Assembly (NCBI GenBank): GCA_963741205.1
Contig: CAVUHW010000027.1
Coordinates: 64,001-128,000 of the forward strand
Source: Nitrospirota bacterium
Lineage (GTDB): Bacteria; Nitrospirota; UBA9217
Reading direction: 5' to 3'
DNA length: 64,000 nucleotides
Position numbers and translations under genes: made by a program. The notes under the pieces were generated by a model. It had not been told where the DNA came from. It did no database searches and saw only the letters and a list, made by a program, of their open reading frames with translations. The first letter of the stretch is position 1. Each line of letters begins with the position of its first letter. Below, one piece after another: positions 36,057 through 63,866 of this stretch.

Positions 36057-36745
36057 AATACTGCTTGCCCTGGTCCTTTTGGCAATGGTCTTGAGTTGCC
36101 GCGGATTCATGTTTCCCGCCGCAACGGCGGGGCTCGCGTTTTTATTGTGCATCACGATAAGGGTCCCTTTGCGGATTTTTGTTCTCAGATTTTCCGAGCC
36201 TCTGTTTATCGCCGCTATCGTGCTCGTCCTGAAGCTATTTTCCTCCGGACATGACGCGCTATTTTCCCTGAACATCTTCGGCCTCCATCTTGTCGGGCAC
36301 CGGGACGGCCTTCTTGAAGGACTTATCATCTGCAACAGGATCATCGGCGCTGTTTCCATCGTTGCCCTGCTCGGATTTTCCACTCCCTTTACCGAAATCA
36401 TGGCAGGCCCTTTCCTGGCTCAGGGTCCCGAAGGGTTTCATAGAGATTCTAATGTTCGCCTACCGATATATCTTCATGCTTTTTGAGGACGCGATGGTCA
36501 TCTACCAGGCTCAGAAAAACCGTCTCGGTTATTCTACGATCAGGAGAGGGCTGAGCTCATTCGGTACACTGGCGGGGTCTCTGATAATCAAGGCTTTTGA
36601 CCACAGCCAGAGCACCACCGTCTCAATGGTCCAGCGGGGGTACGACGGCACCATCCCGACGCTCCGGCACAAGCCTTTCCGGTCTTCGGAGGTGCTGGCG
36701 TCCGCGCTCTTTCTGCTTGTCATGGGGTTTGTATGGAGGCTATAA
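35992..36745 (+). CDS. cbiQ: Cobalt ECF transporter T component (indels)
   Basis: DARVK-like start, STPFTE, FAYRYIF, AQKNRLGY, MVQRGYDG. Confidence 0.88.
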
Positions 36746-53795: not shown

Positions 53796-54911
53796 ATGAA
53801 GAAAAATGATTTCGTTTTCGTCAAAAAGCGACTCGGTGTATCACGCAGAGACTTTTTGAAATACTGCAGCGTTATCGCAGTCGGGATGGGCCTCCCGTTC
53901 GAGGCTGGCGCAAAGATTGCCGAGGCTGTCGTGGCCGCGAAACGTCCTCCGGTCATCTGGCTCTCGGCCCAGGAATGCACCGGTTGTACAGAATCCCTTC
54001 TCCGTTCCTCGCATCCAACTCTTGACCACCTAATCCTCGATCTTATCTCTCTTGACTACCACGAAACGCTCAGCACTCCTTCCGGCCACCAGGCTGAAGA
54101 AGCGAGGGCGGCGTCGATCAAGGAGAACAAAGGCAAGTTCATTCTCGTTGTGGACGGCTCCATTCCGGTTAAGGACAACGGCGTTTACTGCATGATCGCC
54201 GGGAAAACAGCCTTGGAATCTCTGAAGGAAACAGCCAAGGATGCGGCCGCAATCATCGCTATTGGCTCCTGCGCCTCCTGGGGTGGAGTTCCGTCGGCGG
54301 ACCCCAATCCGACAGGAGCGACTCCCGTGCATGAGATCATTAAGGATAAGCCCATAGTTAATCTTCCGGGGTGTCCGCCCAGTCCCTATAATTTTCTCTC
54401 CACTGTACTCTACTTCCTTACGTTCAAGAAACTGCCGGATCTCGATGACAAGGGAAGGCCGAAATTCGCCTACGGAAGGCTCATTCACGAGAACTGCGAA
54501 CGTCGGCCGCATTTCGATGCAGGACGGTTCGCCACGGAGTTCGGCGATGACAACGCCCGGAAGGGATATTGTCTCTATAAACTGGGCTGTAAAGGGCCCG
54601 AGACATTCAATAATTGTCCTTCCATCCTGTATGGCGATGCCGGATCCGGAGCATGGCCGGTGGGAACGGGGCATCCCTGTTTTGGATGCAGCGAGAAGAC
54701 CATAGGCTTCAATAAACCGCTCTTTGCCAAGGCAAGCCTTCATTTGGTGACGCCGCCCGATACCTATCCCCATATTGTCGAACGGCAGGGCGCGGGCATT
54801 GGCGCCTCTCTCGGCGGAGTGGCGGTCGCAGCCGCAGCAGCAGGCGCCGCCTTTGCGGCGGTGAACACGGTCGCCAAGAAACTCGATGATAAAGAGGATA
54901 AGAAGAAATAA
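53796..54911 (+). CDS. hybO: Hyd-2-type [NiFe]-hydrogenase small subunit (Tat substrate, C-terminal anchor)
   Basis: SRRDFLK; QECTGCTES, GSCA, PGCPP, HENC, CLYKLGCKGP, HPCFGC. Confidence 0.93.
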   Translation: MKKNDFVFVKKRLGVSRRDFLKYCSVIAVGMGLPFEAGAKIAEAVVAAKRPPVIWLSAQECTGCTESLLRSSHPTLDHLILDLISLDYHETLSTPSGHQAEEARAASIKENKGKFILVVDGSIPVKDNGVYCMIAGKTALESLKETAKDAAAIIAIGSCASWGGVPSADPNPTGATPVHEIIKDKPIVNLPGCPPSPYNFLSTVLYFLTFKKLPDLDDKGRPKFAYGRLIHENCERRPHFDAGRFATEFGDDNARKGYCLYKLGCKGPETFNNCPSILYGDAGSGAWPVGTGHPCFGCSEKTIGFNKPLFAKASLHLVTPPDTYPHIVERQGAGIGASLGGVAVAAAAAGAAFAAVNTVAKKLDDKEDKKK

Positions 54912-54931
54912 GGCCACGGGAGAACTGACCT

Positions 54932-55883
54932 ATGGAGATCAAGAGAAGAGATTTTTTCAAAGTGGCATCAGCGGGAGGGGTTCTGCTCGCGACAGGAGCC
55001 GGTCCGGCCCACGCACGTGAGGCGAAAACCCGGATCAAGGATGCCGTGGGCATGCTGTACGATTCCACGGTTTGTACCGGATGCAAGGCGTGTGAGTCGG
55101 CGTGCAAGCAGTACAACGATATGCCCCCGAGCTTTTCCTCAAACGACAAGCTCTGGGACAATCCCCTCGACGATGACGCGAAGACGTTGAATATTATCAA
55201 GCTTTATAAAGACGGCTCCGGTGCGGTCAAAGACCGTGAGAAGGATGGTTTTGCATTTGTCAAGCGGCAGTGCATGCACTGTGTGGATCCGGCCTGCGTG
55301 TCAGCCTGTCCCGTCTCCGCCTTGAAAAAAGATGAAAAGAGCGGCGTTGTTACCTACAACAAAGACGCCTGCATCGGCTGCCGGTATTGTCAAATCGCCT
55401 GTCCGTTCAATGTCCCCAAATTCGAGTTTGACAAGGCGTTCCCGCAGATCCGGAAGTGCCAGCTCTGTTCGCATCGGCTGGCTAAAGGACAAATCGCCGC
55501 GTGCGCCGAGTTCTGTCCAACAGGTGCAAACATCTTCGGCAGGGTGGAGGACCTTCTTGCGGAGGCGAAGAAACGGCTGACGTATACACCGGGCGAGTAC
55601 CGGAAATACCCTGTTGTACGGGTTGATGGAAAGGAGATGACCGAGCGCCTCGTGACTCCCTATGTCCCGCACGTCTACGGCGAACAGGATGGCGGAGGCA
55701 CCCAGGTGTCTGATTCTTGCCGGGATCCCTTTAGAGAAAATCGGGCTTCCGAAGCTCGATCCCACGCCGATAGCACAGCGTTCGGAAACAATCCAGCATA
55801 CGATTTATAAGGGCATGGTCGCACCGATCGTGTTCCTGGGCGGCCTGGTTTATCTCGTTCATAAGAACTCGAAGGATAAATAA
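54932..55883 (+). CDS. hybA: Hyd-2 4Fe-4S ferredoxin subunit (indel ~55705)
   Basis: RRDFFK Tat; CTGCKACESAC, CMHCVDPACVSAC, CIGCRYCQIAC; SETIQHTIYKG. Confidence 0.93.
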
Positions 55884-55904
55884 CTTACGCTTGAGGAGAG
55901 AGCT

Positions 55905-57086
55905 ATGTCGGTAGAAATAAAACCAATTGGCGGACGTATCATGACAAAGCCGTTCATTGTCCTCGTGGGGATGGCCCTTTTCGCCGGTCTGCTCGTGCTC
56001 ATCCGGTTTATCTTCGGATTGGCGTCGGTCGCGAACATGAACGACGGCTTTCCCTGGGGCATCTGGATCGCTTATGATGTGGTCGCGGGCACGGCGGTCG
56101 CCTGCGGCGGATATGCCATGGCGCTCATGGTCTACGTGATGAACAAGGGCGAGTACCATCATTTGGTGCGGCCCGCGCTGCTTGCCAGCATGTTCGGCTA
56201 TACGCTGGCAGGTGTTTCTATCTTCTTCGACGTCGGACGGTACTGGCAGGCATACAACCTGTTTCTGCCGAAGTATGCGAACTTGAACTCGATCATGTTC
56301 GAAGTGGCCTTTTGCATCACGACGTATATTTTTGTCCTCTGGATTGAATTCATCCCCGCCTTTCTGGAAGGGCTGAGAAAGCATAAATCCGGTCTGCCGA
56401 AATTCGTTCAGAATTGGGACTTCACGGGAATCGAAAAAATATGGAATAAGGTCCTGTTCTTCTTTATCGCTCTCGGTGTGCTGCTCCCGACCATGCACCA
56501 ATCCTCACTCGGCACGATGATGGTCATCGCGGGCCCCAAGCTGTCGCCGCTGTGGCAAACGAGCCTCCTGCCGCTTTTGTTCCTGATTTCGGCCATCACC
56601 ATGGGATACAGCATTGTGATTTTCGAGTCCATCTATGCGGCCCATGGGCTGAAACGTCCGATGGAAACAGCCATGCTGTCCAGGCTCTCGGCGGTGATTC
56701 CCTGGCTCCTCGGGGCGTTCCTCATTCTCAGGTTCGGCGACCTGCTCGTCCGGGGGGCCTTCGGCGCCTTGTTCTCTTTTAACTTCATCAGCTTCATGTT
56801 CGTCGTTGAAAATGCCCTGTTCATTTATGCCTTTGTCGTTCTCTTGCCGCCTGAGAAACGGACCAAACCGCGCACGATGTTTCTGGCCGCGACAGCGCTC
56901 CTCCTGGCCGGTTCCGTGTATCGTTTCAACGTGTATCTGGTCGGTCTGAGCCCGGCTCCGGGGTGGCACTATTTCCCGTCTTTCGGGGAGGTAATGGTGA
57001 CTTTCGGTCTGATCGCTTTCGAAATTCTGGCTTATCTGTATATCGTTAAAAAATTCCCGGTGCTTCCCGCGGCCGAGCGCGCATAA
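55905..57086 (+). CDS. hybB: Hyd-2 NrfD-type membrane subunit
   Basis: PWGIWIAYDV, DVGRYW, LPTMHQSSLG, YRFNVYL. Confidence 0.93.
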   Translation: MSVEIKPIGGRIMTKPFIVLVGMALFAGLLVLIRFIFGLASVANMNDGFPWGIWIAYDVVAGTAVACGGYAMALMVYVMNKGEYHHLVRPALLASMFGYTLAGVSIFFDVGRYWQAYNLFLPKYANLNSIMFEVAFCITTYIFVLWIEFIPAFLEGLRKHKSGLPKFVQNWDFTGIEKIWNKVLFFFIALGVLLPTMHQSSLGTMMVIAGPKLSPLWQTSLLPLLFLISAITMGYSIVIFESIYAAHGLKRPMETAMLSRLSAVIPWLLGAFLILRFGDLLVRGAFGALFSFNFISFMFVVENALFIYAFVVLLPPEKRTKPRTMFLAATALLLAGSVYRFNVYLVGLSPAPGWHYFPSFGEVMVTFGLIAFEILAYLYIVKKFPVLPAAERA

Positions 57087-57112
57087 AAATTTATCCATAA
57101 GGAGCGTCGACA

Positions 57113-58812
57113 ATGTCAAAGAGAATTGTAATAGATCCCATTACACGTATCGAAGGTCACCTTCGGATCGAGTGTGAAGTCGACAACGGAAAAGTGTCGA
57201 AAGCTTGGACTTCGGGCCAGATGTGGCGCGGAATCGAAAACATCGTCAAAGGGCGCGATCCACGGGAAGTATGGCTGTTTACTCAACGCATCTGCGGCGT
57301 CTGAACGTCTGTCCATGCCCTGACCTCGGTGAGGTCAGTCGAAAATGCCCTGAACTTGGAAGTGCCCCTGAACGCGCAGTATATCAGGAACCTCATTATT
57401 ACGGCCCATGGGGTCCATGATCATATCGTTCATTTCTATCATTTGGCGGCGCTTGACTGGGTAGACATCGTTTCCGCTCTCAAGGCGGACCCGAAAAAGG
57501 CTTCTCAGCTCGCGGAGAGCCTTTCTTCCTGGGACCAGAACTAGTACAAGCATTTAAAGGAGGTACAGGACCGGCTCAAGACTTTTGTCGGAAGCGGTCA
57601 GTTGGGCATCTACGCCAACGGATATTGGGGACATCCGGCGATGAAGCTGCCGCCCGAGGTCAATCTTATCGCAGCGGCGCATTACCTGCAGGCGCTTTAT
57701 TTCCAGCGCCGCATCAACATGGTGGTGACCATTCTCGGCAGTAAGACACCGCATATTCAGAATCTTGCGGTCGGCGGCGTCTCCAATCCGATAAATACGG
57801 ATAATCAGTCTGCGCTCAATATGGAGCGTCTCTATTACATAAAGACGCTCATTGACGAGGTAGGCAGCTTCGTCAAGAACGCCATGCTCGTCGACGTGGC
57901 CGCCGTTGCGGCCCTGTATGCGGACTGGACAAAGTACGGTGCAGGTGTTACGAATTACCTTTCTGTGCCGGACCTCCCGATGGATACCAAGGGGACGAAG
58001 TTCGCCCTGCCAGGAGGTTATATCCCGAATGGCGATCTCAGCAGTTTCCAGCCGATCAAGAGCTTTGACGACGCCTTCTTTAAAGATGGCGTCAAGGAGA
58101 GTATCAAGCACTCCTGGTATAAGGGTGACTGGAACAAGCATCCCTGGGATGAGACGACCGACCCGAACTATACAGGCATGAAGTATGACGACAAGTATTC
58201 CTGGGTAAAGGCTCCTACGTTCAAGGGCAAGCCGGCGCAGGTCGGGCCGCTGGCGAACGTCTTATGTATGTACGCGGCAGGCCACGCCGGTGCAAAGAAA
58301 TACGTCACCGATATGCTTGGCACGATCAGCGCAATAGCAAAGACCCAGGTTGGACCCGCAGCGCTTCACTCTACCATAGGACGCATCGGAGCCAGGGCGA
58401 TTCGCTGCGCGATCCTGTACGATGAACTCACAACCAGTGGAACGCCCTTATCGCGAACATCGCAACGGGCGACGTGAAGACATTCAATAACCCGGTATTC
58501 CCGAGCGGAGAGATCAGGGGAGTGGGCTTCCATGAAGCGCCCCGCGGGGTGCTCTCGCACTGGTCCGTGATCAACAACGGAAAGGTGAAGAACTACCAGT
58601 GCGTGGTGCCGTCGACTTGGAATGCGAGTCCACGGAACGGGGACAGTGCTCCCGGACCATATGAGGCGTCGCTGGTCGGAACGCCGCTGGCGGACCCGGA
58701 AAAACCGCTGGAAGTCCTGCGGACGGTCCATTCCTTCGACCCCTGCCTTGCCTGCGCTATCCACATGGTCGATGCAAAAGGCAGTGATATTGTAACGGTC
58801 AAGGTGTTGTAA
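57113..58812 (+). CDS. hybC: Hyd-2-type hydrogenase large subunit; in-frame TGA at codon 64 (candidate Sec), in-frame TAG at codon 144, indel ~58430
   Basis: [14 protein letters not shown][TGA][46 protein letters not shown] plus C-terminal extension. Confidence 0.9.
57320..57338 (+). promoter_or_regulatory. Candidate bacterial SECIS element
   Basis: Perfect 8-bp stem CTGACCTC/GAGGTCAG with GGT loop; loop starts 23 nt after the TGA at 57302-57304. Confidence 0.6.
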
Positions 58813-58838
58813 GAACTGTTTGCTTGAATCGAGAAACC

Positions 58839-58889
58839 AGCCCTCTGCTCCCGCAGACAGCTGTCCCCGGGGCAGAGGGCTTTTTTTTT
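58839..58889 (+). terminator. Rho-independent terminator between structural and maturation genes
   Basis: AGCCCTCTGCTCC...GGGGCAGAGGGCT + T9. Confidence 0.8.
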
Positions 58890-58907
58890 AGTAGGAGGCA
58901 TTTTTTC

Positions 58908-59405
58908 ATGTCTGAGCCGACCATCACCATCATGGGCTTGGGAAACATCCTCATGATGGACGAAGGCATAGGTGTACACACCATCAGGAGGTTTCTGGAG
59001 CGCTATTCGGTGCCGGGGCACGTTGAGATCATCGACGGTGGAGCCGCAGGCCTTGACCTGCTCCCGTTCATCGAAGGCCGCGAGAAACTGCTGATGGTGG
59101 ACGCAGTCAACTTCAATGAGGCGGCGGGCTATATCGGCGTCCTGGAGAACGACGCCATACCCGCCAAATTCAGTACGAAGGCTTCCCTGCATCATCTGGG
59201 TCTTCTGGATGTCCTTTCGATCGTCAAGCTTTCAAACGCTCTGCCGAAGGACATCTGTCTCATCGGCATTCAGCCCAAGAACATGGAACTCGGCCTTGAC
59301 ATGTCTTCGGCTATGTGGGATAAAATGGATGAGCTCATCGAGCTCATGGTTGCCAAGCTGCGGGAGTGGAGTGTTCCATGTGCCTTGCTATCCCCTCAAA
59401 AGTAG
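58908..59405 (+). CDS. hybD: Hydrogenase maturation endopeptidase
   Basis: GLGNILMMDEGIG, IDGG, VDAV, SLHHLG, IGIQP. Confidence 0.92.
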   Translation: MSEPTITIMGLGNILMMDEGIGVHTIRRFLERYSVPGHVEIIDGGAAGLDLLPFIEGREKLLMVDAVNFNEAAGYIGVLENDAIPAKFSTKASLHHLGLLDVLSIVKLSNALPKDICLIGIQPKNMELGLDMSSAMWDKMDELIELMVAKLREWSVPCALLSPQK

Positions 59406-59926
59406 TTTCCATCAATCACGGTATGGCCACGATCGACGTATACGGCGCCCGAAAGGACGTTAGCATCATTCTCCTGCCCGAGACGCCGAGACTGGGCGAT
59501 TATGTGCTGGTGCATGCCGGCTTCGCAATCCAGTCGATCAAAGCGGAAGCTTTTCAGACAGGCGAGATCATGCACGAGTCATCTATCGCACACAGCATTC
59601 TTGAAATTGTCGATGAGCAGTGCCGCGAACAAGCCTGCGCTTCGGTCACTGCGATCACGGTGAGACTCGGCAAGGCGACCGGAGTGATGCCCGAGGCGCT
59701 CCAATCCGCTTTTAACACGCTCAAGGAAAACACCGTTGCGAGGAACGCCGTATTGACCTTTGAGGTCGTTCCCGTCGGAGGGAGCTGCCATGCCTGCAAC
59801 AGAGACTTCGACGTCCCCGACATCCCCGATGCCCACCTGGTTTCCGCGTGCCCGCTTTGCGGGTCCGTGTCCTTCGAGATCAGCCGCGGCCGGGAACTGG
59901 AGATCATGGACATGGAGCTCAACTGA
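59378..59926 (+). CDS. In-frame HypC(HybG)-HypA(HybF) fusion
   Basis: MCLAIPSKV..GDYVLVHAGFAI continues without a stop into MHESSIA..CHAC..CPLC..GRELEI. Confidence 0.8.
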   Translation: MCLAIPSKVVSINHGMATIDVYGARKDVSIILLPETPRLGDYVLVHAGFAIQSIKAEAFQTGEIMHESSIAHSILEIVDEQCREQACASVTAITVRLGKATGVMPEALQSAFNTLKENTVARNAVLTFEVVPVGGSCHACNRDFDVPDIPDAHLVSACPLCGSVSFEISRGRELEIMDMELN

Positions 59927-60430: not shown

Positions 60431-60951
60431 TGCGGCAAACCCCGGGAGGCGATGCCTTGAAATCATGCTTGCAGTGCGGCACTTGCGGCGGTTCGTGCCC
60501 TTCAGCGGCCGACATGGACTACACGCCGCGCCAATTGTTTTCCCTGCTGAATGCCGGTCTGGCCCGCGAAGTGCTTTCGAGCAATACGCCCTGGTTCTGC
60601 GTCTCCTGTTATTACTGCACGGTGAGGTGCCCCCGGCAGATACCCATTACGGAAATCATGTATACGCTAAAAGAGCTGGCCGTGAAACACGGCCTGATGA
60701 AAATCACCGACGCATACGATTTTTCAAAAACCTTCGTCAATATGGTCGAAAAATACGGAAGGAGCTTCGATTTCGGCCTGTCGCTCCGGTACCATCTGAC
60801 ACACAACTCCATGAACGAGGACTCCTGGGGGACGTTGACCGTGAGGATGTATAAGAAGGAGAGGATGGTGACGGGGCCGTCGAAGATCAAGGATATCGAC
60901 GGGCTCTTCCGAATTCTGGAAAAGGCGAAGCAGATCGGGGGCGGGAAATGA
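60424..60951 (+). CDS. hdrC: Heterodisulfide reductase subunit C
   Basis: CLQCGTCGGSCP..MDYTPRQ; WFCVSCYYCTVRCP. Confidence 0.9.
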   Translation: MVMRQTPGGDALKSCLQCGTCGGSCPSAADMDYTPRQLFSLLNAGLAREVLSSNTPWFCVSCYYCTVRCPRQIPITEIMYTLKELAVKHGLMKITDAYDFSKTFVNMVEKYGRSFDFGLSLRYHLTHNSMNEDSWGTLTVRMYKKERMVTGPSKIKDIDGLFRILEKAKQIGGGK

Positions 60952-61892
60952 GGTACGCGTTTTATCCGGGATGTTCATCGGAGCATCTTGCGTCCGCGTA
61001 TCAGGATTCATGGAAGCAGGTCGCCGATTTATTTAAAATTGAACTCTCCTCCATCCCGGACTGGAACTGCTGCGGGGCGACCGAATACAGCTCAATGAAC
61101 CGGCTCGGCGCCTATGCACTGACAGCGCGGAATCTGGCCCTCGTTCCCGGCGGGTGCGATCAGGTAGTCGCCTCCTGCAGCGCGTGTTATCTGAATCTGA
61201 AAAAAACGGACAAGGTCATGTCCGAGCATCCGGATGTCGAGCGCGATGTCAACTTGGCCCTCTCGGCCGGTGGGCTCAACTACACTCCGGGGAAGTTCAA
61301 AATCAGGCATATCCTGGACGTCATCATAAACGATATAGGCCTTGAGGTCATCAAGGAAAGGGTCTCATCACCCCTCACGGGACTCCGTGTGGCCCCCTAT
61401 TACGGCTGCATGCTTGTCAGGCCGGGCAACGGCTTCGACCATCCGGAATATCCTGTTATGATGGACAGGCTGCTTTCCGTGCTTGGGGCCACGGTGGTCG
61501 ACTATTCAATGAAGGCCTATTGTTGCGGTGGCCACATGCCTCACATCAAGGCGATGACCGGATACGAAATTTTAAGGAGAATACTGAAGGACATCCGCAA
61601 CAAGAGGGCCGATATCATCGCGGTGATCTGCCCTGTCTGTCAGGTGAACCTGGATGCCTACCAGGACGATGTCAATAAAAACTTCGGAACGGATTTTAAC
61701 ATTCCCGTCCTTTTCTTTACACAACTCATGGGGCTCGCCCTCGGCATGACACAGGAGTCCATGGGGATCGGAAAGGAACTGGTATCCGCCCATGAAGTTT
61801 TGTCTGTCAAGAGGAAGACGACGGCTGTCGCCTCTCAGCCTGAAAGACCGGAGGAGGGCCTCCCTATGCCGGATTTGAAAAGGGGAGAATAA
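60948..61892 (+). CDS. hdrB: Heterodisulfide reductase subunit B
   Basis: FYPGCS, DWNCCG, CSAC, YYGC, CCGG, CPVCQVNLD CCG domains. Confidence 0.93.
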   Translation: MRYAFYPGCSSEHLASAYQDSWKQVADLFKIELSSIPDWNCCGATEYSSMNRLGAYALTARNLALVPGGCDQVVASCSACYLNLKKTDKVMSEHPDVERDVNLALSAGGLNYTPGKFKIRHILDVIINDIGLEVIKERVSSPLTGLRVAPYYGCMLVRPGNGFDHPEYPVMMDRLLSVLGATVVDYSMKAYCCGGHMPHIKAMTGYEILRRILKDIRNKRADIIAVICPVCQVNLDAYQDDVNKNFGTDFNIPVLFFTQLMGLALGMTQESMGIGKELVSAHEVLSVKRKTTAVASQPERPEEGLPMPDLKRGE

Positions 61893-63866
61893 ATGACTGA
61901 AAAGATCGGCGTCTATATCTGTCACTGCGGTTCGAATATAGCGGGAACTGTGGATGTCTCCGAGGTGGCGGAGTTTGCAAAGGGGCTTCCGGATGTCGTC
62001 GTATCGCGGGACGACAAATTCATGTGTTCCAGCGCAGGGCAGGAGCTCATCCAGCGGGACATCAAGGAGTCCGGACTGACCAGGATCGTGGTGGCCGCTT
62101 GTTCGCCCCATATGCACGAGCAGACGTTTCGCGCCGCGGCAGGCAGGGCGGGTCTCAACCCGTTTCTGTTCGAGATGTGCAACATCAGAGAACAGGATTC
62201 ATGGATTACCGACGACAGTCAAGCGGCAACGAACAAGGCGAAGGCGCTCGTTGCGGCGGCCGTTTACCGCGTCAGAAGCCACCGGCCCCTTGAGAGCGTC
62301 TCGGTCGAGATTCATCCCGAAGCACTGGTCGTAGGCGGGGGCATAGCGGGGATCCACGCCGCGCTGGAGATCGCCGACGCGGGCCATAAGGTCCACCTGA
62401 TTGAACGGGAACCGTCCCTCGGCGGTCACATGGCCCAGCTCGATACTACCTTCCCGACCCTCGACTGTTCTGCCTGCATACTCACCCCGAAGATGTTTTC
62501 CGCGGGACAGCATCCGAACATCAACCTCCTGACCTACAGCGAGGTCGTGTCGGCCAAGGGTTGTATCGGAAACTTTGAGGTGAAAATAAGACAAAAGCCC
62601 CGGTTTATCGATACCGCTCTTTGTAACGGCTGCGGCTTGTGCCAGCAGATATGTCCCCAGAAGGTCGTGGATACGGCCCATGAGGCAGGCCTCGGATACC
62701 GGAAGGCGGTGTACAGCCCCTTTATGCAGGCAGTGCCGAAATATCCCGTGATCGACACCGAAAACTGCATCTATTTCAAGACCGGGAAATGCCGACTCTG
62801 CGAAAAGATATGCCCGACCAACGCGGTCGACTTCGCTCAGGAGGAGAAGTTCATCGATCTCAAAGCGGGCGCTGTCATCCTCGCCACCGGTTTTCGTCTT
62901 TTCGACCCGAGGAGGGTCCCTCAATACGGTTACGGAAGATACCCCAATGTGTTTACGAGTCTTGAATTCGAGAGGATGCTCAACATGGCCGGCCCGACAG
63001 GCGGGAAGATCGTTCTGAGGGACGGCACGACCAGACCCGAAAGCGTCGCGATCATTCACTGCGTGGGAAGCAGGGACAAGAACTACCACGAATACTGCTC
63101 GAAGGTATGTTGCATGTATTCGCTTAAATTCGCCCACCTCATCAGGGAAAAGACCGGGGCCGAGGTCTTTAACTTTTACCTGGACATCAGGTCCGCTGGG
63201 AAAAATTACGAGGAGTTCTATCGCCGCGTGCAGGATGAGGGCGCCCATTTCATCAGGGGCAGGGCAGCCATGATCATGGACACCGCGTTTAGCCCGGCCG
63301 AGGAAGGGAAGCTTGTGGTCCAGGCAGAGGACACGCTTCTCGGCGTTCAGAGGCGGATACCGGTGGACATGGTCATCCTCAGTCCCGCGATGGAGCCTAA
63401 GGCCGACGCGCGGGAGATGGGGAGGCTGTTCGGCATGGGATGCGATGCCGCAGGTTTCTTTACGGAGAGACACCCCAAGCTTGCCCCGGTATCGACCATG
63501 ACCGAAGGGATCTTTATAGCCGGGACGTGCCAGGGACCGAAGGATATTCCCGAGAGCGTGGCCCAGGCGGGTGCTGCGGCAGCGCGCGTGCTCTCGCTCA
63601 TCTCGAAGGGCAGGGTGGAACTTGAGCCGATCAGGGCGATCATCGAGAAGGACCTGTGCAGCGGGTGCCATATCTGCAACGAGCTCTGCCCCTACCATGC
63701 CATAGATTTTGTCGAAGAGGAAAAGGTGTCGGAAATCAACCCGGCCCTCTGCACGGGGTGCGGAACGTGCGTTGCCGCCTGCCCGAGCCAGGCCATAACC
63801 GGTTGTCACTTCACCTCGGAACAAATCATGGCCGAGATCGAAGGTATCCTGTCGGATGTGAAGTAG
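61893..63866 (+). CDS. hdrA: Heterodisulfide reductase subunit A
   Basis: GVYICHCG, ACSP, GGGIAG, FPTLDCSACIL, CVGSRD, CSKVCCMY, GPKDIP, terminal ferredoxin motifs. Confidence 0.96.
   Translation: MTEKIGVYICHCGSNIAGTVDVSEVAEFAKGLPDVVVSRDDKFMCSSAGQELIQRDIKESGLTRIVVAACSPHMHEQTFRAAAGRAGLNPFLFEMCNIREQDSWITDDSQAATNKAKALVAAAVYRVRSHRPLESVSVEIHPEALVVGGGIAGIHAALEIADAGHKVHLIEREPSLGGHMAQLDTTFPTLDCSACILTPKMFSAGQHPNINLLTYSEVVSAKGCIGNFEVKIRQKPRFIDTALCNGCGLCQQICPQKVVDTAHEAGLGYRKAVYSPFMQAVPKYPVIDTENCIYFKTGKCRLCEKICPTNAVDFAQEEKFIDLKAGAVILATGFRLFDPRRVPQYGYGRYPNVFTSLEFERMLNMAGPTGGKIVLRDGTTRPESVAIIHCVGSRDKNYHEYCSKVCCMYSLKFAHLIREKTGAEVFNFYLDIRSAGKNYEEFYRRVQDEGAHFIRGRAAMIMDTAFSPAEEGKLVVQAEDTLLGVQRRIPVDMVILSPAMEPKADAREMGRLFGMGCDAAGFFTERHPKLAPVSTMTEGIFIAGTCQGPKDIPESVAQAGAAAARVLSLISKGRVELEPIRAIIEKDLCSGCHICNELCPYHAIDFVEEEKVSEINPALCTGCGTCVAACPSQAITGCHFTSEQIMAEIEGILSDVK

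Follow-up and report, generated by a model that had tools for sequence, protein, structure and literature searches.

An in-frame UGA at the Ni-Fe bridging position of a Hyd-2-type hydrogenase from Nitrospirota, a candidate selenocysteine codon

Can a stop codon stand at a metal ligand of a hydrogenase and still be read as an amino acid? The question is raised by a [NiFe] hydrogenase large-subunit gene, hybC, in a 64,000-nucleotide stretch of DNA from a Nitrospirota bacterium (lineage UBA9217; assembly GCA_963741205.1, contig CAVUHW010000027.1, positions 64,001 to 128,000 of the forward strand), which as a whole is here called the window; all window coordinates refer to its + strand. The hybC-like gene (57113–58812) starts with ATG at 57113 in frame 1, ends at 58812 and is broken by a TGA, a TAG and a 1-nt deletion. 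The TGA (57302–57304) falls on codon 64, at the second cysteine of the N-terminal L1 motif, the Ni-Fe bridging ligand of other [NiFe] hydrogenases, and a first-pass annotation had proposed that it encodes selenocysteine (Sec). Using sequence comparisons, we hold with considerable confidence that UGA64 is a programmed recoding site, served by SelB together with a SECIS element (selenocysteine insertion sequence), and that it would place Sec (U64) at the bridging ligand.

Conservation of the TGA and of the hairpin behind it

The window gene was compared with E. coli HybC (PDB 6ehq_L), and residues 1–439 aligned on residues 1–439 (E = 1.2e-178). The TGA, in the context RICGV-TGA-TSVH, lay opposite Cys64 of the E. 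coli protein, just where the first-pass annotation had put it, and homology ran on in the same frame. A phylum sample of 401 genomes was searched with the read-through protein, and this revealed 34 orthologs at 70% identity or more, a census that provides our sole unbiased count of TGA and Cys forms. Exactly one in-frame stop was present in 28 of the 34; all 28 were inspected, and the stop was TGA at codon 64 every time. The gene is present in several complete genomes of this sample. The remaining 6 carried TGC or TGT at this codon, and neither a TAG nor any other further stop was found in any of the 34 orthologs of the sample. A Cys-type homolog, P0003, stood at 85% identity. The UGA is conserved in these relatives, a point that the first-pass annotation had marked for checking.

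A degenerate DNA pattern (R-x-C/U-G-V/I-TGA-T-x-x-H), run against one genome per species of a public collection, gave at least 119 matches. Among the 80 loci listed, 47 had the TGA at this point of a hydrogenase large-subunit gene, and the rest were chance matches in other frames; the metagenome-assembled genome (MAG) labels of these 47, among the matches listed, included Nitrospirota, Chloroflexota, Thermodesulfobacteriota, Spirochaetota, Methylomirabilota and others. Read evidence for the window locus was drawn from Logan contigs, not raw reads, and at most 27% of the sampled words were present in any one run. Two public runs had contigs (X1 rec1 and X2 rec6) that covered the TGA together with the hairpin described below with 0 differences, and the TGC or TGT that would have spoken against the Sec proposal was not seen in them. 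An error at this codon, with TGA written for a true TGC or TGT, would take one substitution in an assembly that does have errors. It would also have to be reconciled with the same TGA in 28 independent assemblies, in the 47 public loci (among the matches listed) and in the exact contigs of two runs. Since TGA recurs in orthologs, public loci and matching contigs, we regard a sequencing or assembly error as practically excluded.

Behind the TGA, the first-pass annotation had described, accurately, a perfect 8-bp stem with a G-led loop. This proposed SECIS hairpin (57320–57338) consists of a 5′ arm CTGACCTC (57320–57327), an apical loop GGT (57328–57330) and a 3′ arm GAGGTCAG (57331–57338); the stem begins 15 nt after the TGA (+16 to +34), with 23 nt between the TGA and the first G of the loop. 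The program bSECISearch reportedly works with a distance range of 16–37 nt. The GGU loop agrees with the rule, taken from PMC13582414, that a G stands at the first or second apical-loop position. Folding of the sequence after the TGA, a check that the first-pass annotation had suggested, gave a divided result: the hairpin appeared in the centroid structure, and the stability of the 65-nt fold was unremarkable, being no better than that of shuffled sequences (z = −0.82, with 42 of 200 shuffles folding at least as well). Because the single-sequence fold was not significant, the case for a real hairpin rests on its conservation across genomes.

For the pair counts, sequences were grouped by taxonomy (set A2, the 16 same-family orthologs) or by a motif in the protein (set A3), and structure played no part in the grouping. 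In the 16 same-family orthologs, 95.3% of cells were paired in the 8-bp helix, compared with 28–52% when the 3′ arm was slid by 1–3 columns. One of these comparisons illustrates how pairing is maintained: in the ortholog L178, the 5′ arm changed from ACC to GTC and the 3′ arm carried the synonymous change AGG to AGA, and the pair was kept (a compensatory change of C-G to U-A). Covariation within the family was thin, with one pair changed on both sides and 41 of 500 shuffles reaching this value, since diversity within the family is low.

Other Hyb-type clades carried a different hairpin, ACGCACUG-GCUU-CAGUGCGU, at +11 to +30, and a third register was found in a sister Group 1 clade, which is cytochrome-b-linked and about 52% identical to the window HybC. 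A single hairpin model for all TGA-type genes failed, as three registers exist, and an alignment of 43 Hyb-type TGA genes (A1) was not used for pair counts because registers were mixed in it. The sister-clade set comprised 48 TGA-type genes, one of which (A3 row L085) belongs to the clade by the motif rule and to the Hyb type by the tree and was among the misfits of the count. In this set, 91% of cells were paired and 28 cells were compensatory, a score that 0 of 500 shuffles reached. The flanking amino acids co-vary there, and the stem is kept (AGC...GCT, TGC...GCA, GCT...AGC, GCC...GGC).

We also determined the best ungapped stem downstream of the codon. Its median length was 8 in 39 distinct TGA genes of the Hyb type versus 4.5 in 6 Cys-type genes, and 6 in TGA-type versus 5 in Cys-type genes of the sister clade; medians are given because Mann-Whitney p-values overstate the evidence when the sequences are related. 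One Cys-type ortholog, L183 (76% identity, TGC at the codon), retained 7 of the 8 pairs of the window-type hairpin, and it may represent a recent switch between Sec and Cys, in either direction. As judged from these alignments, TGA-type genes seem to keep a SECIS-like hairpin that most Cys-type orthologs, with their shorter stems, appear to lack; the first-pass annotation had suggested a check of this association.

A true stop at this codon would leave either two polypeptides, of 63 aa and about 494 aa, the second restarting at GTG 57329, or a truncated form only. Public protein records of TGA-type orthologs look like the second product: P0067 (which stands for 21 member sequences) and P0106 are 494-aa entries that start with VRSVENAL at the GTG inside the hairpin and are without the L1 motif. 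These records, however, are automatic gene calls, and with termination an essential metal ligand would be lost and Cys61 would be parted from the rest of the site. Moreover, the pieces share one frame, the TGA sits exactly on the Cys codon in 28 of 28 TGA-type orthologs, and the conserved downstream stem is more in keeping with a SECIS than with a start site, which would lie hidden in an 8-bp helix. We consider termination at codon 64 very improbable, and programmed recoding remains the preferred reading of this UGA.

Selenocysteine machinery and a second UCA tRNA

The host genome assembly is 84% complete and consists of 50 contigs. The genes selA, selB, selC and selD, for which the first-pass annotation had recommended a search, were all found in it: selA adjoins selB, selD has an in-frame TGA of its own, and the canonical tRNA-Sec carries a discriminator G. 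Two other Sec codons of this genome served as internal controls for the hairpin. An fdhA-like gene at C22:119268 has its Sec codon followed by a 6-bp stem with the loop GGUCU, and the Sec codon of selD is followed by a 7-bp stem with the loop GUC. Both stems are short and perfect, their loops are small and G-led, and in form they are like the hybC hairpin.

A second tRNA gene with a UCA anticodon was found at C30:27060–27152 (L015:1498–1592, − strand). Its product has 95 nt, acceptor and D stems of 8 and 7 bp, and a discriminator U directly before the CCA end. In PMC13582414, a tRNA is classed as SelC*/tRNA-ReC if its length is 80 nt or more, its anticodon is UCA or GCA and its discriminator base is U, and the C30 tRNA is, on its sequence, SelC*/tRNA-ReC-like by that criterion. 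The same study, with reference to Vargas-Rodriguez 2018, states that such a tRNA lets UGA with a SECIS be read as Cys, and it warns that UGA may be read as Cys in genomes that have one. A UCA tRNA with discriminator U was present in 2 of the 5 TGA-type relatives checked (L233 and L234). In the other 3 of the 5, no discriminator-U tRNA was detected at E ≤ 1e-8, and the TGA codon is therefore kept there without one.

These tRNAs bear on what is inserted at codon 64. UGA could be recoded through the same hairpin and SelB with Cys, instead of Sec, being inserted by the SelC*-like tRNA, always or under Se scarcity, in which case this organism would have an ordinary Hyd-2 of the all-Cys kind. The features of the C30 tRNA and the similar tRNAs in two of the five relatives are in keeping with this alternative. 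Opposed to it are the canonical tRNA-Sec, selA, selB and the Sec-containing selD, all of which are present, as well as the retention of TGA in the three relatives that have no discriminator-U tRNA; charging of the tRNA by cysteinyl-tRNA synthetase (CysRS) is putative. We consider insertion of Cys alone or by default of Se decidedly unlikely, and Sec and Cys insertion may both take place in one cell of this organism. The claim of the first-pass annotation that Se bridges Ni and Fe holds up in part: the recoding signals and the Sec machinery are in place, and the choice between Se and S at the codon is a matter of probability, given the SelC*-like tRNA.

Further interruptions of hybC and the operon around it

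Two further interruptions of hybC, both of which the first-pass annotation had listed as caveats, are present in the assembly, and both occur in this copy only. The first is the TAG at 57542–57544, where orthologs read WDQNS with Ser at this position. The sole contig over the TAG, X2 rec11, belongs to a relative (151 nt with 10 differences) and had C at 57543, which gives TCG; no same-strain contig over the TAG was found among the public-run contigs. The second is a 1-nt deletion at 58430–58431, which shifts the frame. All three runs covering this site (X1, X3 and X9) had an extra C after 58430, and the extra C restores the frame DELTNQWNAL, matching the orthologs. One of these contigs, X9 rec25 from an RNA library, was otherwise identical to the window over 58397–58546 (150 nt); the RNA-library contigs of X9 are no proof of transcription.

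Other genes of the assembly are broken as well. rpoC (C13:85702–89702) is split into 3 frame pieces, selA (C26:~86275) has one frame change, and fdhA (C36:13848–16316) is fragmented; rpoB is intact in the same assembly, and no sign of split genes was seen in the Pfam-scanned open reading frames (ORFs) of the window or in the other genes of the operon. The broken rpoC, selA and fdhA indicated that the assembly contains consensus indel errors. We think it likely that the TAG and the frameshift of the window copy are assembly errors too, the deletion being read as such and the TAG probably having the same origin.

Alternatively, the window copy could be a real pseudogene, with the TAG and the deletion genuine and the strain without a functional Hyd-2, whatever the TGA means in relatives. 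Three interruptions within 1.7 kb, next to intact neighbors (hybO, hybA, hybB and hybD), are what such decay would look like; the TAG lacks a same-strain contig to correct it, and the change from TCG to TAG is a substitution, unlike the indel type seen elsewhere in the assembly. On the other side, the extra C at 58430 is present in 3 of 3 covering runs, one of them represented by the RNA-library contig otherwise identical over 150 nt. Essential or required genes (rpoC, selA and fdhA) are equally frame-broken in this 84% complete assembly of 50 contigs, and a second stop occurs in 0 of the 34 orthologs. We consider a genuine pseudogene unlikely and continue to read the TAG and the deletion as probable errors.

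Several points weigh against the reading of UGA64 as a Sec codon. The fold of the window sequence is no more stable than chance, covariation in the own family is thin, the Cys-type ortholog L183 keeps most of the hairpin, and the register of the hairpin differs between clades, with the consequence that no one SECIS model suits all. The C30 tRNA could, from its sequence, deliver Cys to codon 64, selA is frame-broken in the assembly, and the TAG is without same-strain coverage. The public runs may include the source sample of the assembly and are then not independent of it, and recoding in this clade is predicted from sequence. Nothing that the first-pass annotation had named as disproof of its proposal was encountered, and we retain the assignment of codon 64 to Sec at the strength given above.

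As for the genes around hybC, the region 53796–59405 forms a hybO-hybA-hybB-hybC-hybD operon. The hybO-like gene (53796–54911) encodes a small subunit with a Tat signal (Pfam PF01058 and PF14720; NCBIfam TIGR00391 at 486 bits, above its cut-off); the best equivalog of its product is the Hyd-2 small subunit, and the TAT signal model TIGR01409 matches residues 15–33. It is followed by a hybA-like gene for a 4Fe-4S electron-transfer subunit (54932–55810; NF008134 HybA at 366.6 bits versus a cut-off of 263; Pfam Fer4_11) and a hybB-like gene for an integral membrane NrfD-type subunit (55905–57086; NF008133 at 515 bits versus a cut-off of 450; Pfam NrfD), so the operon has ferredoxin-like HybA and NrfD-type HybB subunits in place of a b-type cytochrome. 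Downstream of hybC lies a hybD-like gene for a maturation endopeptidase of the HyaD/HybD type (58908–59405; Pfam HycI; TIGR00072 at 136 bits versus a cut-off of 47).

The hybC gene, being interrupted, was scored piecewise against the NCBIfam models. The HybC equivalog NF007778 was the top-scoring model and stayed below its cut-off, with two pieces at 670.9 and 177.5 bits versus 969; Pfam PF00374 was found on all four pieces, with its positions 1–25, 27–104 and 108–392 on successive pieces. By operon and similarity, the enzyme is classed as a Hyb-type (Hyd-2) membrane-bound Group 1 hydrogenase, and the label of subgroup 1c is assigned tentatively from the operon and the best hits. The first-pass annotation had named a membrane-bound HybOABC hydrogenase, an identification borne out by the gene order and by the best NCBIfam and PDB matches to E. 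coli Hyd-2, and it had read the C-terminal L2 motif as DPCLAC, which is correct: the motif (58738–58755) has both of its Cys, with TGC at 58744–58746. The four-Cys definition of such large subunits (L1 RxCGxC plus L2 DPCxxC) does not apply literally, because Cys61 is present and the second L1 position is the TGA; all four positions are filled only with the TGA decoded as Sec or Cys.

Some other features of the region were recorded. Between hybC and hybD, a GC-rich inverted repeat followed by nine T (58841–58889) has the look of a terminator inside the expected single operon. At 59366–59926, a single ORF of 186 aa joins a HypC domain (residues 5–64) to a HypA domain (residues 69–184), which is either a natural fusion or the result of a stop lost between two genes. 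A second [NiFe] large-subunit-like gene lies at C27:129388–129735, 1.4 kb past the window end (38% identity over residues 3–117); it follows a gene with a CCG domain (60948–61892) and an hdrA-like gene (61893–63866) and probably belongs to an Mvh-type hydrogenase. Elsewhere in the window, ARAGORN predicted a tRNA-Met (36072–36167) whose anticodon lies at position 37 and which, at 96 nt, is longer than is usual for either an elongator or an initiator.

The predicted enzyme among known hydrogenases

In the mechanism that we propose, the hairpin 15 nt past UGA64 would act as a bacterial SECIS and recruit SelB with Sec-tRNA(Sec), and Sec would take the position of the second L1 Cys, which is the Ni-Fe bridging ligand in other [NiFe] hydrogenases. 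The large subunit would be matured by Hyp proteins and HybD and exported together with the Tat-signal small subunit. Electrons from H2 oxidation would pass via HybA to a quinone site of HybB, and the predicted product is a periplasmic, membrane-anchored H2:quinone oxidoreductase of the HybOABC type that has a bridging selenolate and keeps both Cys of its C-terminal motif. We infer the incorporation of Se, the bridging of the metals (a geometry taken from homology) and any influence on catalysis. Observed were the operon, the Sec machinery, the conservation of the UGA and a hairpin that is conserved and co-varies.

The closest known system is E. coli Hyd-2. Both share the gene order hybO-hybA-hybB-hybC-hybD, the RICGVxT and DPCLAC motifs, a small subunit with a Tat signal and, past the His, a C-terminal extension for HybD cleavage. 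They differ at codon 64, which is Cys in E. coli and TGA here, and in the host, here an uncultured anaerobe of soil or sediment. To our knowledge, the Sec of every characterized [NiFeSe] hydrogenase is one of the terminal Ni ligands. Like the classical enzymes of this kind (Desulfovibrio vulgaris HysAB and Desulfomicrobium baculatum; PDB 2WPN and 5JSH), the window enzyme would have one UGA-encoded Ni ligand and would depend on selABCD and on a SECIS just 3′ of the UGA. In the classical enzymes, however, Sec takes the place of the first (terminal) Cys in the C-terminal motif, which is DPCLAC here, and those proteins are soluble and periplasmic and have neither HybA nor HybB. The best aligned stretch between hybC and the classical [NiFeSe] subunits covered just residues 5–118 (E ~1e-51). 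Identity with a HysA-type [NiFeSe] enzyme was ruled out by the all-Cys C-terminal motif and by the score of 240.9 bits against NF045518, whose cut-off is 780.

Sec at the N-terminal motif has been mentioned in print. As cited in PMC13582414, Baltazar et al. 2011 (Eur J Inorg Chem) listed one Group 3 sequence with an N-terminal Sec and two Group 1 sequences with CXXU, whose Sec was predicted as a bridge between Ni and Fe; the Group 1 sequences are, by that account, the same kind of variant as the window hybC. A 2021 engineering study (PMC8020662) likewise mentions "purported examples" of a substituted bridging Cys. The first-pass annotation did not know of any description of a bridging-Sec variant, and to call it undescribed is too strong in view of these two sources. 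In the table of prokaryotic selenoproteins of a 2026 review, the hydrogenase subunits given are UxxC only, or CxxU for MvhD, and no uptake-hydrogenase large subunit with CxxU is entered in that table. Among the texts searched, including PMC13188914, PMC4730141, PMC9961374 and PMC11291895, no UXXU or CXXU in Group 1 appeared beyond those citations, and supplements may list some. The window gene is thus of a kind already noticed in print and never characterized. The novelty of the finding itself is modest; it is larger, relative to the literature searched, for how common the bridging-TGA form is and for the Group 1 clade with both L1 Cys as TGA.

Artificial replacement at the equivalent position has been achieved in E. 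coli Hyd-1 (PMC8020662). The C79U variant matures and oxidizes H2 with a lower apparent KM for H2, and its activity, 13% of native, was the highest of four Sec variants; at 10% O2 it was nearly inactive. Because Hyd-1 C79U keeps activity, a bridging Se is compatible with catalysis. In that case, unlike in the gene studied here, Sec was introduced artificially, by way of UAG and EF-Tu, and the enzyme is an O2-tolerant one of Group 1d. If the natural enzyme acted like Hyd-1 C79U, we speculate, by analogy, that it might gain in H2 affinity under anoxic conditions and not in O2 tolerance.

A set of N-terminal Sec motifs comparable with ours comes from PMC13582414 (2026), in which CXXU, UXXC or UXXU was found in silico in 47 Group 4 sequences. 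Those Group 4 [NiFeSe] genes are similar to the present ones in that a SECIS lies directly downstream, with G at the first or second loop position, that Sec- and Cys-type forms are intermixed in the tree and that tRNA-ReC-like genes co-occur. They are different in encoding energy-converting multisubunit complexes and in being reported as rare (about 0.2%), whereas the enzyme here is of the Group 1 uptake type and its TGA form is the majority (28 of 34) in the phylum sample. UXXU was reported only for Group 4 in the accessible texts of the literature searched.

In many genomes, the large-subunit gene of the sister Group 1 clade has TGA in place of both L1 Cys (RI-TGA-GV-TGA-T), followed by one hairpin, and a C-terminal DPCMAC. 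The genes of the clade are ordered small subunit, large subunit, b-type cytochrome and protease, and the closest solved structure is 3myr. The double TGA was seen directly at 26 loci (L029:1093–2799 on the − strand, L030, L031 and 23 among L058–L129), and the phylum census held 52 rows with two TGA, 3 of which were inspected; in other genes of this clade, only the second of the two positions was TGA (12 of 12 inspected). A FastTree phylogeny of 112 large subunits, for which no root was inferred and rows of fewer than 300 residues were dropped, required at least 12 changes among CXXC, CXXU and UXXU. Its sample includes pattern-scan loci selected for TGA, and the ratio of U to C in it is biased accordingly. 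Taken broadly, the normal Hyb-type uptake form in Nitrospirota and several anaerobic phyla would be a bridging-selenolate enzyme, Ni of the sister clade would have two Se ligands (terminal and bridging) from two UGAs 6 nt apart decoded by one hairpin, and with a SelC*-like tRNA one gene might give two enzymes, with Sec or Cys according to Se supply. We see the chances of this wider picture as evenly balanced.

Gene callers cut these genes at the TGA and leave 494-aa fragments without L1, so hydrogenase surveys of soil and sediment likely misclassify or undercount them, and the bridging-TGA form is hidden from protein-based surveys. Judged by one phylum sample, where 28 of 34 orthologs carry it, it seems to be a common enzyme form in anoxic soils. 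It has been argued, in PMC8020662, that the terminal Sec position is special, and natural bridging-Sec enzymes, if the reading is true, would test that claim directly. They would also reveal how H2 affinity, catalytic bias and O2 sensitivity are affected by a bridging selenolate when the enzyme has evolved with it.

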